Both the position numbers and the translations under genes were made by a program. A DNA stretch of 28,657 bases from a virus: UHGV virus genome UHGV-0074437; one strand, 5' to 3'. Of the stretch, positions 2,932-28,657 are shown piece after piece. The notes under the pieces are model-generated. The model had not been told where the DNA came from. It ran no database searches and saw only the letters and a list, made by a program, of their open reading frames with translations. Every line of letters starts with the position of its first letter. The stretch's first letter is position 1.

Positions 2932-3483
2932 ATGAATGATATTTCTATCGAATATCTGAAAGAAGCACTGGAATACACACCAGATTCAGGTGTTATCCGT
3001 TGGAAGCAGCGCCCCAAAAATCATTTTAAGACCGATAATTCTTGGCGGGCGACCAATGCCAATTTTGCCGGAAAGGTGGCAGGCGCACGTGATAATGATG
3101 GATATTTCCGCATCGGAATAGATGGTCGGTTATATAGATCTCATCGTGTCGCCTGGGCGTTACATTATGGCTATTGGCCTGAGAATGAGATTGATCACAT
3201 TTCAGGCGATAGAGGTGATAACCGCATAGACAACCTCCGAACAGTGACTTCGGCAGCCAACAACAAGAATTTGCGCCTTTACTCCACTAATAAAACAGGT
3301 GTCCCTGGCGTAGGTTGGTATAAAGCACGTGGGAAGTGGAGAGCAAAGATAAACGTCTCTGGAAAGGTGAAGCATATTGGTTACTTCGATGATTTCTGTG
3401 AAGCGGTGAAAGCAAGAAAGGCTGCTGAGATGAAATTGCAATATCACGAAAATCACGGAGCCGGCGACAGGCTCACTTTCTAA
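2932..3483 (+). CDS. HNH homing-type endonuclease with a C-terminal AP2-like DNA-binding domain
   Basis: 183-aa ORF; HNH_3-like motif HRVAWALHYGYWPENEIDHISGDRGDNRIDNLR followed by an AP2-like segment GVPGVGWYKARGKWRAKINVSGKVKHIGYFDDFCEAVKARKAAE; RBS-like AAAGG upstream. Confidence 0.75.
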   Translation: MNDISIEYLKEALEYTPDSGVIRWKQRPKNHFKTDNSWRATNANFAGKVAGARDNDGYFRIGIDGRLYRSHRVAWALHYGYWPENEIDHISGDRGDNRIDNLRTVTSAANNKNLRLYSTNKTGVPGVGWYKARGKWRAKINVSGKVKHIGYFDDFCEAVKARKAAEMKLQYHENHGAGDRLTF

Positions 3484-3497
3484 AAGGTAAAGACGCA

Positions 3498-4016
3498 ATG
3501 AATCATCAATTGGCTAATCTCGATTTCCGGGACATGGTGGTTGTTTCTGGTGATCGCGTGATCACAACCTCCCGCAAGGTAGCAGCTTACTTCGACAAGC
3601 AGCATCACCACATCATTCAGAAAATCGAAAAGCTAGACTGTTCGGATGAATTTCTAACCAGCAACTTTTCGCGGGTTACCTATGAACACAAGGGTAATCA
3701 GTATGTTGAATATGAAATTTCCAAAGACGGCGCGATGTACATCATCATGTCGTTTACCGGCAAAAAAGCTGCCGCCATCAAAGAGGCGTTTATCAAAGCA
3801 TTTAATTGGATGCGTGACAGGCTGATGGAGATGGCTCACTCATACCAAAGAGAGCACAACGAGTTAATGCTGGAGTTCATGAAGGAAAAGGATGTTGCCA
3901 GTATGTCAGGACGCTTGCTGAACCGCTGGGGCAGGATCAAAAAACCGCAACTCATAGCAAGAATCGAAAGGCTTGAGCAGCAGGCGCAAATATCGATCCC
4001 CGGACTGCCAAAGTGA
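3498..4016 (+). CDS. Rha-family phage regulatory protein
   Basis: 172-aa ORF; N-terminal region (VVVSGDRVITTSRKVAAYFDKQHHHIIQKIEKL...YEISKDGAMYIIMSFTGKKAAAIKEAFIKAFNWM) fits the Phage_pRha family pattern as recalled; RBS AAAGG 6 nt upstream. Confidence 0.7.
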   Translation: MNHQLANLDFRDMVVVSGDRVITTSRKVAAYFDKQHHHIIQKIEKLDCSDEFLTSNFSRVTYEHKGNQYVEYEISKDGAMYIIMSFTGKKAAAIKEAFIKAFNWMRDRLMEMAHSYQREHNELMLEFMKEKDVASMSGRLLNRWGRIKKPQLIARIERLEQQAQISIPGLPK

Positions 4017-4446: not shown

Positions 4447-4944
4447 ATGGCAAAGCTCACCGACAAACAAGAGCTGTTTGCCCATCCGGATGATGTGTAT
4501 GTCGGAGAGTGTGTGATTTATACCGGCTACATAAATAAGCGAGGGTATGGGCAGAAGCACATTTCACGAAAGCCGCACTACGCACATCGAATCGCATACT
4601 GCGAAGCTAACGGAATTTCGCTAGATAGCATCAAGGACCTGGTTGTTAGGCATAAATGCGATAATCCATCATGCGTGAATCCTGACCATCTGATTATAGG
4701 TACTGTCGCTGACAATAATCGTGACAGGTCAAGGCGAGGCAGAAACTCATACCCTGACCGTTCAGGTGAAAAGAACGGAATGGCGAAATTAAAAGAGTGC
4801 GATGTCATCTGCATTCGACGTGAATATGTCCGCGGGAGCATTGGTAGGGGGCTTAGATCCTTATCAGAGAAATATGGCGTATCGACGACCATGATTGCTG
4901 ACATCGTTAATTATAGAAATTGGAGCAACGTTTCGGGGGTGTGA
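4447..4944 (+). CDS. HNH endonuclease (terminase-associated type)
   Basis: 165-aa ORF; motif HRIAYCEANG...RHKCDNPSCVNPDHLIIGTVADNNRD, typical of zinc-binding HNH endonucleases; located immediately upstream of the terminase small subunit, the usual position for HNH proteins that assist terminase cleavage. Confidence 0.8.
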   Translation: MAKLTDKQELFAHPDDVYVGECVIYTGYINKRGYGQKHISRKPHYAHRIAYCEANGISLDSIKDLVVRHKCDNPSCVNPDHLIIGTVADNNRDRSRRGRNSYPDRSGEKNGMAKLKECDVICIRREYVRGSIGRGLRSLSEKYGVSTTMIADIVNYRNWSNVSGV

Positions 4945-9210: not shown

Positions 9211-11273
9211 TTCGCATCAGGGTTTTTAACGCTGACTCAGACCGCTGGATCACCGTCAGGCCAAACGGGCCATACCATGAGGGACGCCCGGTAAAAATTG
9301 ATGAGAATGGAGAAATCAGGGCTGGCATGGGGGGGAAGTTCAACGGTAAGAAGATTGGGGAGATCGGGAAGGATTTTTCCGGCCCACAAAGTCCACCACA
9401 GCAGGTAATTCAGGAACGACTGAAAGAAAAAACGGTGAGGCAGGATCCTGCTGTTGCTGAAAGGCGAAAAGGTGACGAGGAACGTGCAGCAGCGGAAAAA
9501 AGGCTTCGCACCGCACTAAAAAAAGCCATCGAAGGGCAGCGTGGAAAAGAAGTACAGAATCCGCCGGAAGCACACCAGCGCTCCACGCAGCCTGAGCCCG
9601 GAAAACTTGACAGTAACGCTATGAAATCCTGGGCTTTATTGTGGAAGCGCGGAAATCCGGTGAAAACGAAAAATACTTCACTGAAACGTGCGAATGAAAC
9701 ACTTACTGCCAATGGATTTCATCCTTTACCTGATAATGTCGCCAGAATAGCAACAAACCGAATTGGTCATTCATTTGCCGCAGGCAATGGTATTGGCCTT
9801 AACGAACTGCTGTCCACCAAGGAACGGCTTTATGACATCGGTGGACGAAATTACTTAAGAGGCTTATTCACCGCTAATGAAGTGGAACAATTAACAAACG
9901 CCGGATTACTGACCCCTGTTTCCGGTGGCGGACTGTTTGATCACATCCCGACAGACAAAGGCGTTACTTTCTTTTCGTCAGTCATACATTCTCAACAGGA
10001 ACAAATGTTGAGTACCGCAAAAGGAACCCGCGACGCGGCGTATACAAAAGGCATCAGGTATTTTTTCAATACCCGGCTGGGGGAAACCCGCTATCAGCTG
10101 GCTGACGGCTCGCTGCTGTGCAAAGACGTGCCGATAGGACGAACAGGTAAGCAGCTCTATGGTGCTGATGACCTGCCAAACCTCAAACCCGACAAGCTCG
10201 GTGAGATAGTCGTCACGCGTTCTCCTGAGCAGGTATTCCATCCCGCCACGCTTGCCTCATTCGAAGGAATGAGTATCACGGTGTTGCATCCCGAGGATGA
10301 AAACGGGGATGTGCGGCTGGTGAATCCAGAGAACTGGAAAGAGCTTGCTGTCGGGCATCTTCAGAATGTCCGGCGCGGGACGGGTGTGCAGTCTGATTTG
10401 ATGCTGGCTGACCTTATCGTCAAAGACGAAAGCGCCATTCAGCTTATCGAAGATGGCCTGCGCGAAGTGTCGTGTGGCTATGACGCGGAGTACGAGCAGA
10501 CCGAGCCAGGTAAAGCCGAGCAGGTCGATATTACCGGAAACCATGTGGCTCTTGTCCCTAAAGGCAGAGCCGGAAATCGTTGTGCAATTGGAGACAGAGA
10601 CACAATGGCAAATCAAAAGAAAAGCTGGTGGACCCGCATGCGCACGGCCATCAAAACGGGTGACGCTGACACCATGAACGAACTGCTGGACTCTGCGCCA
10701 GCGGCGGTAACGGGTGATGAAGGGGATCTGCCCAGCGGCGTTAACCTCAACATTAACCTTTCACCGCAGCAACCATTGCCGGACAAAAAGCCGGAAATGG
10801 GCGGAGAGCCAACCGGCGACGGCGAGGACGATATCAAAACCTTGCTTAAAGCCCTGCTGGCTAAGCTGGAAGGAAATGCGACGGGCGATAACGACAATAA
10901 GCCTGACGATAATCCGACCGGTGACGGCGAGGACGATGAAGAGGAAACCACGATTACTGGTGACTCAGCCTGGCGTGCCGAAGTTATCGTTCCGGGTATC
11001 GATCTGAGCCGTAAGATGAAACCGACCGCGTTCAAACGCGAGGTTCTGGCTTCCGCTGACAAAACGCTGGTTCGCCAGATAGTCGGCGATGCGGATATCC
11101 GCAAATTGCCGAAACAATCGGTCAACATGGCGTTTAATGCCGTGTCAGAGATTGCCAAAGGGCGAAACACCCGCAGCACCACGGGCGATGCACAACGTCC
11201 AAATATGGGCATGACCAGCATCGCTTCCCTGAACAAACAAAACGCCGACTTCTGGTCTAACCGCAAAGGATAA
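9207..11273 (+). CDS. Large multi-domain head protein: unassigned N-terminal domain, central prohead-maturation-like domain (DUF2213-like as recalled), acidic Gly/Asp-rich scaffold-like C-terminus
   Basis: 688-aa ORF overlapping the Mu-F-like gene stop (ATGA); occupies the scaffold/protease slot between head morphogenesis and capsid genes; C-terminal repeats TGDGEDD...[10 protein letters not shown] are typical of scaffolding regions; the N-terminal ~270 aa have no motif I recognise. Confidence 0.65.
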
Positions 11274-25977: not shown

Positions 25978-27141
25978 CTATCTGGCTTGAGATATTGAAA
26001 TAGATTTTGTTTTCCGCCCATACATCAAACGGCTAAGCGATATAGATGGGTTATCTATAAGCTTTGTAAATAAATGTGCTATTATTATGCTTGTGGGAAT
26101 CGTAAACACCCATACATAAATTGGGCTGTATTTATATAGTAAAAGTAACCCTATAGAAAGAATTGTATAATGTATAAGGTATAGCGAGAAAGATATTCTC
26201 CCAAGATAAAGACCAACAGACAGGAACTTACCCTCTTTTAATTTAAGTGAGCACACGATTAATCCAACGGCACCGATAGATGTCACAATATCACCAAGAC
26301 CTCTGTGTGATAAAGTCCATCCATTATTAAATGGGTAGCAATACAGCATTAAAGAAATTATCACCAGCAGGAATATGATTTTCTTGTCTATATTATTCAT
26401 TATTTCATTAGTTCTTTTCACATTTAAAGCAAGGTATGCACCAATTGTAAAAAATAACGAGTAATGAACTGTTAACAGGCTTGAGCTTAGGGGGTCTATA
26501 CCGTATAGATGCGGTTTAGAGTTCATGATAAATATACTAAGCATCGATGCCAACAAGGATAGCAGCACAAAGCGAAAGCCAAGTTTTTTCGTAAAGTACA
26601 GAATTAAAGGAAACGCTATCGAAATTCTAGCCTCGTAAACTAAGGACCATGCTGGAGGGTTTATTTCGAAGTAATTGTAAAACCCCAGCATGCCAATGTG
26701 ATTAACTATTGTTGCTAGATTGAAGTCTGGTTTTGCTACGCCCATCCATCCTTTTTCCCAGGAAAAACCACTTGATTTCATGACTGCAAAGACAATAGCC
26801 ACAAATAATAATGATGCAATGAATGGAATGTATAGGCGAGCTACCCTGGCTAACAGATATCTAAACATATTAAATGGATTTGCTGAGTTGATCATCATTG
26901 TTAAAGCAAACCCACTCAACACAAAGAAAACAATAACAGCTTGATGTCCAGCCCACAGAAAGCGAAATGGTGACCATTCAAGATACGGCCAGATAGTGGG
27001 GTTGTTATATAATCCAGCAACGGTTGTGTGAGCAAGCAAAACCGTTAGAGCAGCATAACCCCTAACTGCATCAAGAGATGGGATTCGTTTTGTATCTTTC
27101 ATTACTATTCTCATTTTAGTTTGTTGAGTCAATACTAACAT
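25978..27141 (-). CDS. Acyltransferase family 3 integral membrane protein (putative O-antigen / LPS O-acetyltransferase, lysogenic-conversion type)
   Basis: Minus-strand ORF with about 10 predicted transmembrane segments; N-terminal region KRIPSLDAVRGYAALTVLLAHT...FFVLSGFALT matches the acyltransferase_3 (OafA/Oac-type) signature; strongly AT-rich. Three candidate in-frame ATG starts (27141, 27114, 27102); the third gives MKDTKRIP, the usual N-terminus for this family. Confidence 0.8.
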   Translation of the reverse strand: MLVLTQQTKMRIVMKDTKRIPSLDAVRGYAALTVLLAHTTVAGLYNNPTIWPYLEWSPFRFLWAGHQAVIVFFVLSGFALTMMINSANPFNMFRYLLARVARLYIPFIASLLFVAIVFAVMKSSGFSWEKGWMGVAKPDFNLATIVNHIGMLGFYNYFEINPPAWSLVYEARISIAFPLILYFTKKLGFRFVLLSLLASMLSIFIMNSKPHLYGIDPLSSSLLTVHYSLFFTIGAYLALNVKRTNEIMNNIDKKIIFLLVIISLMLYCYPFNNGWTLSHRGLGDIVTSIGAVGLIVCSLKLKEGKFLSVGLYLGRISFSLYLIHYTILSIGLLLLYKYSPIYVWVFTIPTSIIIAHLFTKLIDNPSISLSRLMYGRKTKSISISQAR

Positions 27142-27457
27142 CCATCTGGAGGTTTAAGAAACATCCTCAGCATCCATAACACTTAAGGCTGGCGCCAGCA
27201 CAGAGAAAGCGAAATGGTGACCATTCAAGATACGGCCAGATAGTGGGGTTGTTATATAATCCAGCAACGGTTGTGTGAGCAAGCAAAACCGTTAGAGCAG
27301 CATAACCCCTAACTGCATCAAGAGATGGGATTCGTTTTGTATCTTTCATTACTATTCTCATTTTAGTTTGTTGAGTCAATACTAACATCCATCTGGAGGT
27401 TTAAGAAACATCCTCAGCATCCATAACACTTAAGGCTGGCGCCAGCACAGAGAAAGC
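26957..27457. repeat. Tandem direct duplication (2 x 247 bp plus 7 bp) covering the 5' end and upstream region of the acyltransferase gene
   Basis: 26957-27203 is repeated identically at 27204-27450 (checked at several anchor points); identity continues 7 nt (AGAAAGC, 27451-27457) into a third unit; the junctions coincide with the short direct repeat AGAAAGC. Confidence 0.85.
27167..27388 (-). pseudogene. Truncated duplicate of the acyltransferase 5' end (62 identical N-terminal codons plus an 11-codon out-of-context tail)
   Basis: Minus-strand ORF whose first 62 residues are identical to the acyltransferase N-terminus, then diverge at the duplication junction into CAGASLKCYGC-stop. Confidence 0.7.
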
Positions 27458-27594: not shown

Positions 27595-27978
27595 ATGCAA
27601 TACGCATTAGTCAAAGACGGTGTCGTTGAAAACATAGTTGAATGGGATGGGACCGGAAATCCCTTTCCTGATTATGAAGTGATTGCAGTAAGCGCAGGCG
27701 GCGTGGGTGTGGGATGGTTATGGCAGGATGGGGTATTCGTTAACCCTAACGCACCATCGGAACCGACTGATGCCGAGTTGTATGACGCTGATCTTGCGGC
27801 GATCAACGCAGAGTACGAAAAGGACAAAAAGGACCTGGTATACGAATACGCAACTATCGGCCTTTTCGACGGTGCAAATGAGGACGCAAAGAAAGCGGCT
27901 GTGTACAGCAAGCTGCAGGCGCGGATTCAAAAGTACGCTTCTGATGTAGAAGCTCTGGATGAGAAATATGGGGGTTAA
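27595..27978 (+). CDS. Hypothetical protein, possibly tail-fibre-associated (assembly/chaperone candidate by position)
   Basis: 127-aa product from the ATG at 27595 with a strong AAGGAG RBS; the open frame extends upstream to 27460 but that part overlaps the terminator-like hairpin; acidic C-terminal half; no motif recognised with certainty. Confidence 0.5.
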   Translation: MQYALVKDGVVENIVEWDGTGNPFPDYEVIAVSAGGVGVGWLWQDGVFVNPNAPSEPTDAELYDADLAAINAEYEKDKKDLVYEYATIGLFDGANEDAKKAAVYSKLQARIQKYASDVEALDEKYGG

Positions 27979-27979
27979 C

Positions 27980-28147
27980 ATGGCAGAACAAGCAGAAAGC
28001 AGCGCAGCAACTACCGTACCCGATACATGTCCGAACTGTCTGGAAGTTGGGACGGTGAGCATCATTACAAAGACGATCGGAGGGGTAGTTAAATACTACT
28101 ACCAGTGTTCGTCTTGCGGCTATCGCTGGCCGGTACCAGCTGCATAA
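27980..28147 (+). CDS. Small zinc-ribbon protein (CxxC-x22-CxxC)
   Basis: 55-aa product from the ATG at 27980 (GGGGG 5 nt upstream, 1-nt gap after the preceding stop); cysteine pairs CPNC and CSSC separated by 22 residues. Confidence 0.5.
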   Translation: MAEQAESSAATTVPDTCPNCLEVGTVSIITKTIGGVVKYYYQCSSCGYRWPVPAA

Positions 28148-28208
28148 ATTTATTCCCCATCAAAACAAACCGATACCGCGCTTCGGTAGTAAAGAGGCGC
28201 ATCTTCAG

Positions 28209-28252
28209 TTGATCTGCTGGAACCTGAAATTATACTGTATGCGTATACAGTA
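28209..28252 (+). promoter_or_regulatory. SOS-regulated promoter: -35 TTGATC (28209-28214), -10 TATACT (28231-28236), overlapping a LexA box TACTGTATGCGTATACAGTA (28233-28252)
   Basis: The 20-bp palindrome matches the E. coli LexA-box consensus CTGT-N8-ACAG with TA-rich flanks; the sigma70-like hexamers are spaced 16 nt apart and overlap the box; located 15 nt upstream of the umuD-like start codon. Confidence 0.75.
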
Positions 28253-28267
28253 TTTTGGAGGTGCATC

Positions 28268-28657
28268 ATGGGATTTCCATCGCCAGCAGCAGACTACGTT
28301 GAAGAACGCATATCACTCGATAAGCGTCTTATCGCTCATCCTTCAGCCACCTACATGATGGTAGCGGGCTCTACATACCTGCGCGCTGGGATCATGAAGG
28401 GCGCAATGCTTATCGTCGACTCGTCGCTGACGCCGAAGGATGGTTCTCTGCTTGTCTGTGCTGTTGATGGTGAGTTCAGGATCATGCGTTACAGGACGCT
28501 GCCGCATCCTTGCCTGGAGAACCCTGAGAATGGAAGGAGGGAGCCACTACCATCAAAGGATGAGGTATCTGATACATCGCGGCCAGTATTCGGGGTGATT
28601 ACGTACAGCATCAACGATGCTCGCTCTGGCGAGTTCGACGACTGCCCGGTGATGTGA
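28268..28657 (+). CDS. UmuD'-like S24-peptidase-fold protein (natively N-truncated UmuD homolog, humD-like)
   Basis: 129-aa ORF with GGAGG RBS; N-terminus MGFPSPAADYVEERI aligns with E. coli UmuD beginning at the Cys24-Gly25 autocleavage site (as recalled); S24 core motifs present (HPSATYMM, GAMLIVDSS, VCAVDGEF). There is no in-frame upstream ATG. The stop is at the last base of the window. Confidence 0.8.
   Translation: MGFPSPAADYVEERISLDKRLIAHPSATYMMVAGSTYLRAGIMKGAMLIVDSSLTPKDGSLLVCAVDGEFRIMRYRTLPHPCLENPENGRREPLPSKDEVSDTSRPVFGVITYSINDARSGEFDDCPVM

Follow-up and report, generated by a model that had tools for sequence, protein, structure and literature searches.

A HumD-family gene with a predicted LexA operator at the end of an enterobacterial prophage

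The virus genome UHGV-0074437, a stretch of 28,657 nucleotides that was analysed as a whole and is called the window below, ends in a gene of the humD family. In our estimate it is about 85% probable that this gene is a phage-borne counterpart of UmuD', truncated from birth at the point where UmuD is processed, that it forms an independent, LexA-controlled unit at the end of a prophage, and that its product uses the UmuC of the host. A LexA-controlled, pre-truncated phage UmuD' has been known since HumD of phage P1 (1999), and the family has a curated NCBI model. The features on which the argument depends are as follows.

28268-28657, plus strand: humD-family gene, 129 codons plus TGA, encoding a UmuD'-type protein of 129 amino acids (aa)
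28209-28214, plus strand: -35 hexamer TTGATC, from a promoter scan, within the 12-mer TTGATCTGCTGG (28209-28220)
28231-28236, plus strand: -10 hexamer TATACT, from the promoter scan, with a 16-nt spacer to the -35 hexamer
28233-28252, no strand given: predicted LexA operator (SOS box) TACTGTATGCGTATACAGTA, 20 bp, matching the consensus at 17 of 20 positions
28257-28263, plus strand: Shine-Dalgarno sequence GGAGGTG, read from the sequence, 4 nt before the ATG
28373-28375, plus strand: codon ACA for Thr36, at the alignment position of the catalytic Ser60 of UmuD
28484-28486, plus strand: codon ATG for Met73, at the alignment position of the catalytic Lys97 of UmuD
28625-28654, plus strand: C-terminal tail SGEFDDCPVM, specific to the HumD family and lying beyond the end of UmuD in alignments

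Start site, truncation point and family membership

The humD open reading frame (ORF) opens with MGFPSPAADYVEE, its product begins MGFPSPAADY, and its TGA occupies the window's last three bases. Past the in-frame stops TAG-TAA (28187-28192), the earliest ATG, GTG or TTG is the ATG at 28268; no alternative in-frame start of these three kinds was found between those stops and 28268. The 25 in-frame codons in this interval span the promoter and operator and bear no resemblance to the UmuD arm. Because there is no in-frame start codon upstream of 28268, no N-terminal arm can be encoded, and a longer ORF carrying one was rejected for that reason. In alignments with E. coli UmuD' (1umu) and with K-12 UmuD, Gly2 of the window protein falls on Gly25, which is the first residue of UmuD'. 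A preliminary description of this DNA had proposed that a 129-aa, S24-fold UmuD homologue starts here at the UmuD' processing site, with neither the arm nor the cleavage-site residues, and both the alignment and the absence of an upstream start bear this out.

The best matches among solved structures are E. coli UmuD' (1umu, E = 1.4e-22) and UmuD (8gmt), with LexA structures matching far more weakly (E = 2e-5), and the Pfam domain PF00717 (Peptidase_S24) passes. The alignments to UmuD and to P1 HumD called for in that description were run and gave 43% and 65% identity, respectively. The BLASTP match to K-12 UmuD (E = 1e-29) runs from Gly25 to the last residue of UmuD. Compared with UmuD and UmuD' as represented by 1umu, 1i4v and 8gmt, the window protein thus shares 43% identity over the UmuD' part, including an identical GFPSPAADYVE segment, but it is without residues 1-24 and the Cys24-Gly25 cleavage site, has Ser60 and Lys97 replaced, carries 10 extra C-terminal residues, and is not part of an operon with umuC. 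The missing arm (residues 1-24) is the part of UmuD that carries the ClpXP and beta-clamp motifs.

Judged by its sequence, the humD product is an ordinary member of the already curated HumD family, the prototype of which is P1 HumD. It scores 211.1 bits (cut-off 120) against the NCBIfam equivalog model NF051876, "HumD family translesion DNA polymerase", with residues 1-129 covering profile positions 1-129 of 129. The model for autoproteolytic UmuD (NF007621) gives 90.6 bits, which is below its cut-off of 110, and the LexA model TIGR00498 gives 36 bits against a cut-off of 111. Among PHROGs, the match is to phrog_811, "UmuD-like protein". The features of autoproteolytic UmuD, MucA or ImpA are absent, namely the arm, an Ala/Cys-Gly cleavage site, the Ser-Lys dyad and a downstream umuC; of a LexA/CI-type repressor there is the S24 part only, with no N-terminal DNA-binding domain. 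Public assemblies contain the identical protein in 136 index blocks. UniRef and RefSeq use the name "HumD family translesion DNA polymerase" for close relatives, next to older labels reading "S24 family peptidase" or "LexA family transcriptional regulator".

Within the phage collection, identities are 93% to the UmuD-like protein of HK639, 72% to that of HK140, 65% to HumD of P1 and P7, 64% to N15 gp26, 63% to phiKO2 gp23, and 61% to the D6 protein. The Met-Gly-Phe-Pro-Ser-Pro start is found in five of the six aligned proteins (window, HK639, HK140, P1, N15 and phiKO2), and in phiKO2 there is a GTG at the same position. Counted from the aligned Met/Val-Gly-Phe-Pro, the HK639, P1, N15 and phiKO2 proteins have 127-129 aa, and the same start position and length range hold for P1, N15, phiKO2, HK639, HK140 and all 80 loci fetched from IMG/VR. 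These 80 loci are the best 80 of 453 tblastn-confirmed matches. It should be noted that the IMG/VR sample was seeded with the peptides MGFPSPA and GEFDD[CY]P and is therefore no measure of how universal the N-terminus or the tail is; the generality of both was judged instead from unbiased tblastn matches.

The preliminary description also called the gene analogous to humD of P1. The relation is correct but goes beyond analogy, given that the protein belongs to the same family (NF051876) at 65% identity. Like the window protein, P1 HumD has 129 aa, begins with Met-Gly-Phe-Pro-Ser-Pro at the UmuD' N-terminus, ends in ...SGEFDDCPV(M/I), and is encoded by a stand-alone gene without umuC. A LexA box lies just upstream in both, with a gap to the ATG of 15 nt in the window and 19 nt in P1. 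They differ at the dyad positions, which are Ser/Lys in P1 (ADSH...RIKRY) and Thr/Met in the window protein (GSTY...RIMRY), and in context, as P1 is a plasmid prophage with humD between lxr and phd/doc, whereas humD of the window is the last gene of an integrated prophage.

The closest named relative is the UmuD-like protein of HK639 (YP_004934058.1), with 93% identity at the protein and 85% at the DNA level. It shares the Thr/Met substitutions, the position of the LexA box, and the location of the gene between the tail-fibre genes and the attachment site. On the other hand, its annotated start is a GTG lying three codons further upstream (VQNMGFP...), the phage itself is lambdoid and of siphovirus type, with the integrase downstream, and the rest of the window is unrelated to HK639. 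N15 gp26, phiKO2 gp23 and HK140 gp28 (63-72% identity) have the truncated start, the tail and upstream LexA boxes in common with the window, but their dyad positions carry Thr/Lys. Moreover, the operator is common to humD and a divergent dinI in phiKO2 and HK140, and HK140 has a small gene separating the operator from gp28.

More distant UmuD'-like proteins that are likewise born truncated (MGFPSPATDY...) were seen on the IncX3 plasmid pHNGD64-NDM (L099 1801-2157) and in Pantoea phage G19 (L097 1801-2175). These are without the HumD tail, and the dyad Lys is replaced by Met or Ala. On pHNGD64-NDM, ISKox3 lies upstream of the gene and no LexA box is left.

Promoter and LexA operator

A near-consensus SOS box overlapping the -10 hexamer had been proposed for 28233-28252, and the comparative case that this box is functional is strong. 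Its three mismatches to the LexA consensus are all in the central spacer. Within the 28.7-kb window, TACTGTATGCGTATACAGTA is the sole CTGT-N8-ACAG (0.31 expected) and the sole 20-mer with no more than three mismatches to the LexA consensus TACTGTATATATATACAGTA; none was found in 100 shuffles. The 80 IMG/VR loci provide 72 distinct upstream regions, and all 72 have a LexA-like 20-mer (no more than four mismatches, within 350 nt upstream), compared with 0 of 499 control windows from the same loci with fewer than six mismatches to the consensus. The box-to-ATG distance falls into four classes, 34-37 nt (as in the window), 62-63 nt, 275-282 nt and 304-305 nt. In the last two, a small gene sits between the operator and humD, as in HK140. 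When the upstream regions of the window, HK639, P1, N15, Hafnia phage yong1 and K-12 umuDC are aligned, the LexA box is the only invariant block. A LexA site is annotated at the equivalent position in the GenBank records of P1 (19 nt upstream of humD) and phiKO2.

The promoter is predicted from homology to the umuDC promoter and the conserved TTGATC, and not from the scan. The scan found TTGATC-16-TATACT as the only sigma-70-like site in 27900-28657, and this is the chance level (one found, 1.0 expected). An alternative -10 hexamer, TACTGT at 28233-28238, would have an 18-nt spacer; the LexA box overlaps the -10 under either choice. K-12 umuDC has a homologous promoter and operator, with its LexA box over the -10, and the 12-mer TTGATCTGCTGG is identical there (L100 1206-1217), at 23 nt from the box compared with 24 nt in the window. 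TTGATC occurs at the same distance in 38 of the 72 family upstream regions. This comparison supports the -35 assignment, and given the shared 12-mer and the TTGATC spacing, the promoter-operator unit looks inherited from a umuDC-type operon, which suggests that both promoter and operator have come down to the phage gene from an ancestral umuDC operon. No convincing plus-strand terminator was found in the interval from the upstream zinc-ribbon ORF to humD; the only hairpin there (28174-28188) has its T-run on the minus strand.

Two other arrangements were observed among relatives. In many of them, a single LexA box is common to humD and a divergent dinI homologue (HK140, L012 1910-2501; phiKO2, L013 2181-2500; and IMG/VR loci such as L029-L036 and L061-L071). 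Many also have, upstream of humD and translationally coupled to it, a small gene for about 79 aa, and the same gene precedes the truncated UmuD'-like gene on IncX3 plasmids (L099 1559-1798).

Position in the prophage and the source of UmuC

The window represents the late half of a temperate phage. It starts with RusA, the Q antiterminator, holin, lysozyme and Rz genes, followed by two HNH genes around a Rha gene, the terminase, portal, Mu-F-like, DUF2213 and major capsid genes, and then the sheath, tape measure, baseplate and tail-fibre genes, a reverse-strand Acyl_transf_3 gene, two small ORFs and humD. The head and tail genes resemble those of Citrobacter phage Omnitron and Salmonella phage SEN34, and the source element is a temperate, lambdoid, myovirus-tailed prophage of Enterobacteriaceae.

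What lies beyond the window can be seen in locus L003 (assembly GCA_013424585.1), which matches 10 kb of the window upstream of humD with no more than five mismatches. There, the host gene dacD begins 344 bp after humD and is followed by sbmC and yeeA. Other prophages that encode the identical protein adjoin yedD, amyA or fliT, and diverge from L003 right after the stop codon. Because the flanks diverge at this point, humD must be the last phage gene, beside the attachment site.

Directly past the stop codon, L003 has a short direct repeat, GTACCAAATTGCGTACCAAAT (10391-10430). Prophages at different sites diverge at this point, and the repeat probably belongs to attR. Of the 80 IMG/VR contigs, about 20 also have the humD stop codon as their exact end, an indication that the last gene call was taken as the prophage boundary.

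The preliminary description left it to the downstream sequence to show whether a umuC- or dinB-family gene follows. None does: dacD is next in L003, and in the eight loci with an identical protein where host dacD or yedD follows humD, there is no linked umuC. The same is true of relatives, in which humD is followed by the integrase (HK639), a parB/sopB partition gene (N15 and phiKO2) or phd/doc (P1), none with umuC. A Pfam scan of 24 window ORFs, including all of at least 300 aa, detected no Y-family (IMS) polymerase domain; the early half of the prophage is outside the window. Given that no umuC is linked and that umuC is nearly universal in E. coli (5423 of 5426 complete genomes), the partner would be supplied by the host. 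Phages with a full-length umuD (e.g., Salmonella phage Oslo and Morganella phage IME1369_01) are organised differently, in that the Cys/Ala-Gly site, the GDSM/GSSM motif and the Lys are kept, and umuC is immediately downstream.

Protease decay, selection and the proposed role

Both residues of the protease dyad are replaced in the window protein. Among 73 distinct family proteins, 32 have Ser at the Ser60-equivalent position, 40 have Thr and one has Ala; at the Lys97-equivalent position, 59 have Lys and 14 have Met, the latter forming a clade of at least 91% identity that includes HK639. The pairs are Ser/Lys (32, including P1), Thr/Lys (26), Thr/Met (14) and Ala/Lys (one). Within the Thr/Met clade, the ratio of nonsynonymous to synonymous substitution rates (dN/dS) is 0.018-0.079, and it is 0.096 in comparison with a 78%-identical relative; the clade is under strong purifying selection. 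The dyad has been lost while selection persists. What selection maintains is therefore something other than proteolysis, as one would expect of a protein that is born "cleaved". The protease function appears to have been dispensable, and to have decayed in the window protein.

We propose the following course of events. In a lysogen, host LexA would bind the operator overlapping the -10 hexamer of the gene's own sigma-70 promoter and keep humD off, independently of the phage repressor. DNA damage would generate activated RecA (RecA*), leading to self-cleavage of LexA and to transcription of humD. Since its first residue stands one position ahead of the equivalent of Gly25 of UmuD, the product would have no need of RecA*-mediated self-cleavage. 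By analogy with P1 HumD, it would dimerise and join host UmuC, which is also LexA-controlled, in a translesion polymerase similar to DNA polymerase V (Pol V), and the SOS response would have its "activated" accessory subunit at an early stage; binding to RecA would be expected as well. The gene may affect mutagenesis or survival, and a plausible benefit would be that, as in Weigle reactivation, damaged DNA of prophage and host alike undergoes translesion synthesis sooner during induction. The bypass of the RecA*-dependent step that had been suggested for this gene would hold for the cleavage of UmuD, but not for SOS mutagenesis as a whole, as RecA* is still required to cleave LexA and to activate Pol V (as Pol V Mut). 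Full-length UmuD is recognised by ClpXP through its N-terminal arm, and because residues 1-24 are absent, the window protein would also be without this recognition element.

Several points weigh against this proposal. The loss of both dyad residues sets the window protein apart from P1 HumD, although no harm is expected from it in a UmuD'-type role. The function is transferred from P1 HumD, at 65% identity. P1 HumD is reportedly poorly expressed, and said to complement well only from a high-copy plasmid, which makes the physiological role uncertain. The S24/UmuD' beta-fold is assigned from sequence homology, the AlphaFold2 model being of low confidence (mean predicted local distance difference test score, pLDDT, 59.6) and based on a shallow 77-sequence family alignment (67-98% identity, drawn from the best 120 matches listed). 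Finally, the tail has no counterpart in UmuD', so that standing in for UmuD' may not be the whole task of the family, or not its task at all.

The tail is very highly conserved. Among 77 family proteins, F123, D124 and P127 are invariant, and conservation is 90% or more at E122, D125, C126, V128 and M129. Distant phage homologues from Hafnia (EFDDNPCM) and Aeromonas (EWDDLPVI) still have it, but it is missing from the more distant truncated UmuD'-like proteins of Pantoea phage G19 and IncX3 plasmids, and plasmid umuD/impA-type matches end at query residues 115-121, before it. Its pLDDT in the AlphaFold2 model is 31-37. EFDDCPVM resembles the C-terminal tip of SSB (the protein that binds single-stranded DNA), DFDDDIPF (PMC3936761), and we claim resemblance only. 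One might speculate that the motif [E/D]-[F/W]-D-D-x-P-x-[M/I]-COOH is an SSB-tip-like element that docks HumD, or HumD2-UmuC, on the SSB-binding pockets of proteins of replication or repair, or on the SSB OB fold, but we consider this improbable; a search of the literature for an SSB-tip mimic, or for a link of the HumD tail to Pol V or SSB, returned nothing specific. If the tail were such a docking motif, it would provide a recruitment or competition mechanism that host UmuD' is without, and together with the decayed protease site it would make HumD a distinct accessory factor rather than simply a pre-cut UmuD'.

The alternative that survives best, though we think it unlikely, is that the protein modulates or inhibits the SOS response and is not a subunit of Pol V. 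A protease-dead S24 domain that binds the RecA* filament could compete for the RecA* groove with LexA, host UmuD or co-resident prophages' repressors, or could form inactive heterodimers with host UmuD or UmuD', and if so it would tune induction or mutagenesis. The dyad loss despite strong purifying selection would fit, as would the strictly conserved acidic tail that is absent from UmuD. Also, humD often lies back to back with dinI, which encodes a modulator of the RecA filament (e.g., in HK140 and phiKO2), and LexA and UmuD share the RecA* groove (8gms and 8gmt, both among the structure matches). But a born-cleaved UmuD' would be expected to lose the dyad just as well, and GFPSPAADYVE and the core match UmuD' (E = 1e-22) much more closely than they match LexA (E = 2e-5). 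Further, HumD "functionally complements E. coli UmuD'" according to the P1 GenBank record, and a passage of PMC7092418, citing McLenigan 1999 (J Bacteriol 181:7005), describes P1 as encoding a shorter, already activated UmuD named HumD.

A second alternative is that the gene is a functionless remnant of umuD, truncated at its 5' end when recombination at the prophage end broke a umuDC operon. The location at the extreme end of the prophage beside the attachment site, the promoter 12-mer in common with chromosomal umuDC, and the missing catalytic residues could all be read in this way. Such a pseudogene is effectively refuted by the selection and conservation data: dN/dS is 0.02-0.10, the start position is the same and the length 127-129 aa across P1, N15, phiKO2, HK639, HK140 and the 80 IMG/VR loci, the Shine-Dalgarno sequence is good and the operator is conserved, a conserved C-terminal tail has been gained, and the gene occurs in unrelated contexts (plasmid, linear-plasmid and integrated prophages). 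The idea that it is the C-terminal domain of a LexA/CI-type repressor regulating the prophage itself draws on some NCBI cluster-member names ("LexA family transcriptional regulator") and on weak matches to LexA structures and TIGR00498, and is ruled out, as 129 aa with an S24 domain only exclude a helix-turn-helix domain, the TIGR00498 score is far below its cut-off, and newer RefSeq and UniRef names for the same clusters read "HumD family translesion DNA polymerase".

Some neighbouring genes deserve mention. Upstream of humD are a 55-aa zinc-ribbon protein of the CxxC...CxxC type (27980-28147, plus strand) and a 127-aa ORF without a Pfam match (27595-27978, plus strand), both conserved in related prophages. 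Between the tail-fibre gene and humD lies the Acyl_transf_3 gene (25978-27141, minus strand; Pfam E = 1e-31), which is probably an O-antigen or surface acyltransferase gene of the lysogenic-conversion kind; its variants in relatives encode 352-374 aa and occur in either orientation. The 5' end of this gene and the region upstream of it are covered by a 247-nt tandem duplication (26948-27194 and 27195-27441, 99% identical), which gives rise to a 73-codon ORF duplicating the N-terminus (27167-27388). The duplication is polymorphic, being present in L003 and missing from L004, L006 and L009, in which the spacing is 247 nt shorter. Near the other end of the window, upstream of the small terminase gene, HNH endonuclease genes (2932-3483 and 4447-4944, plus strand) lie on both sides of the Rha-family regulator gene (3498-4016).

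Returning to the HumD counterpart of UmuD', what the window adds to a known family is mostly a matter of how such genes should be read. Annotations such as "S24 family peptidase" or "LexA family transcriptional regulator" are misleading for them, and a protein of the Thr/Met clade is, by its predicted domain content and active-site residues, neither a peptidase nor a DNA-binding regulator. The erosion of the dyad once cleavage became unnecessary is a small, clean example of relaxed constraint, and the family-specific tail is a minor feature of interest for the regulation of Pol V. The family is accompanied by its LexA operator, under a promoter that looks derived from umuDC, and humD would be a terminal, self-contained, SOS-controlled unit without a polymerase partner, which must use the UmuC of the host.

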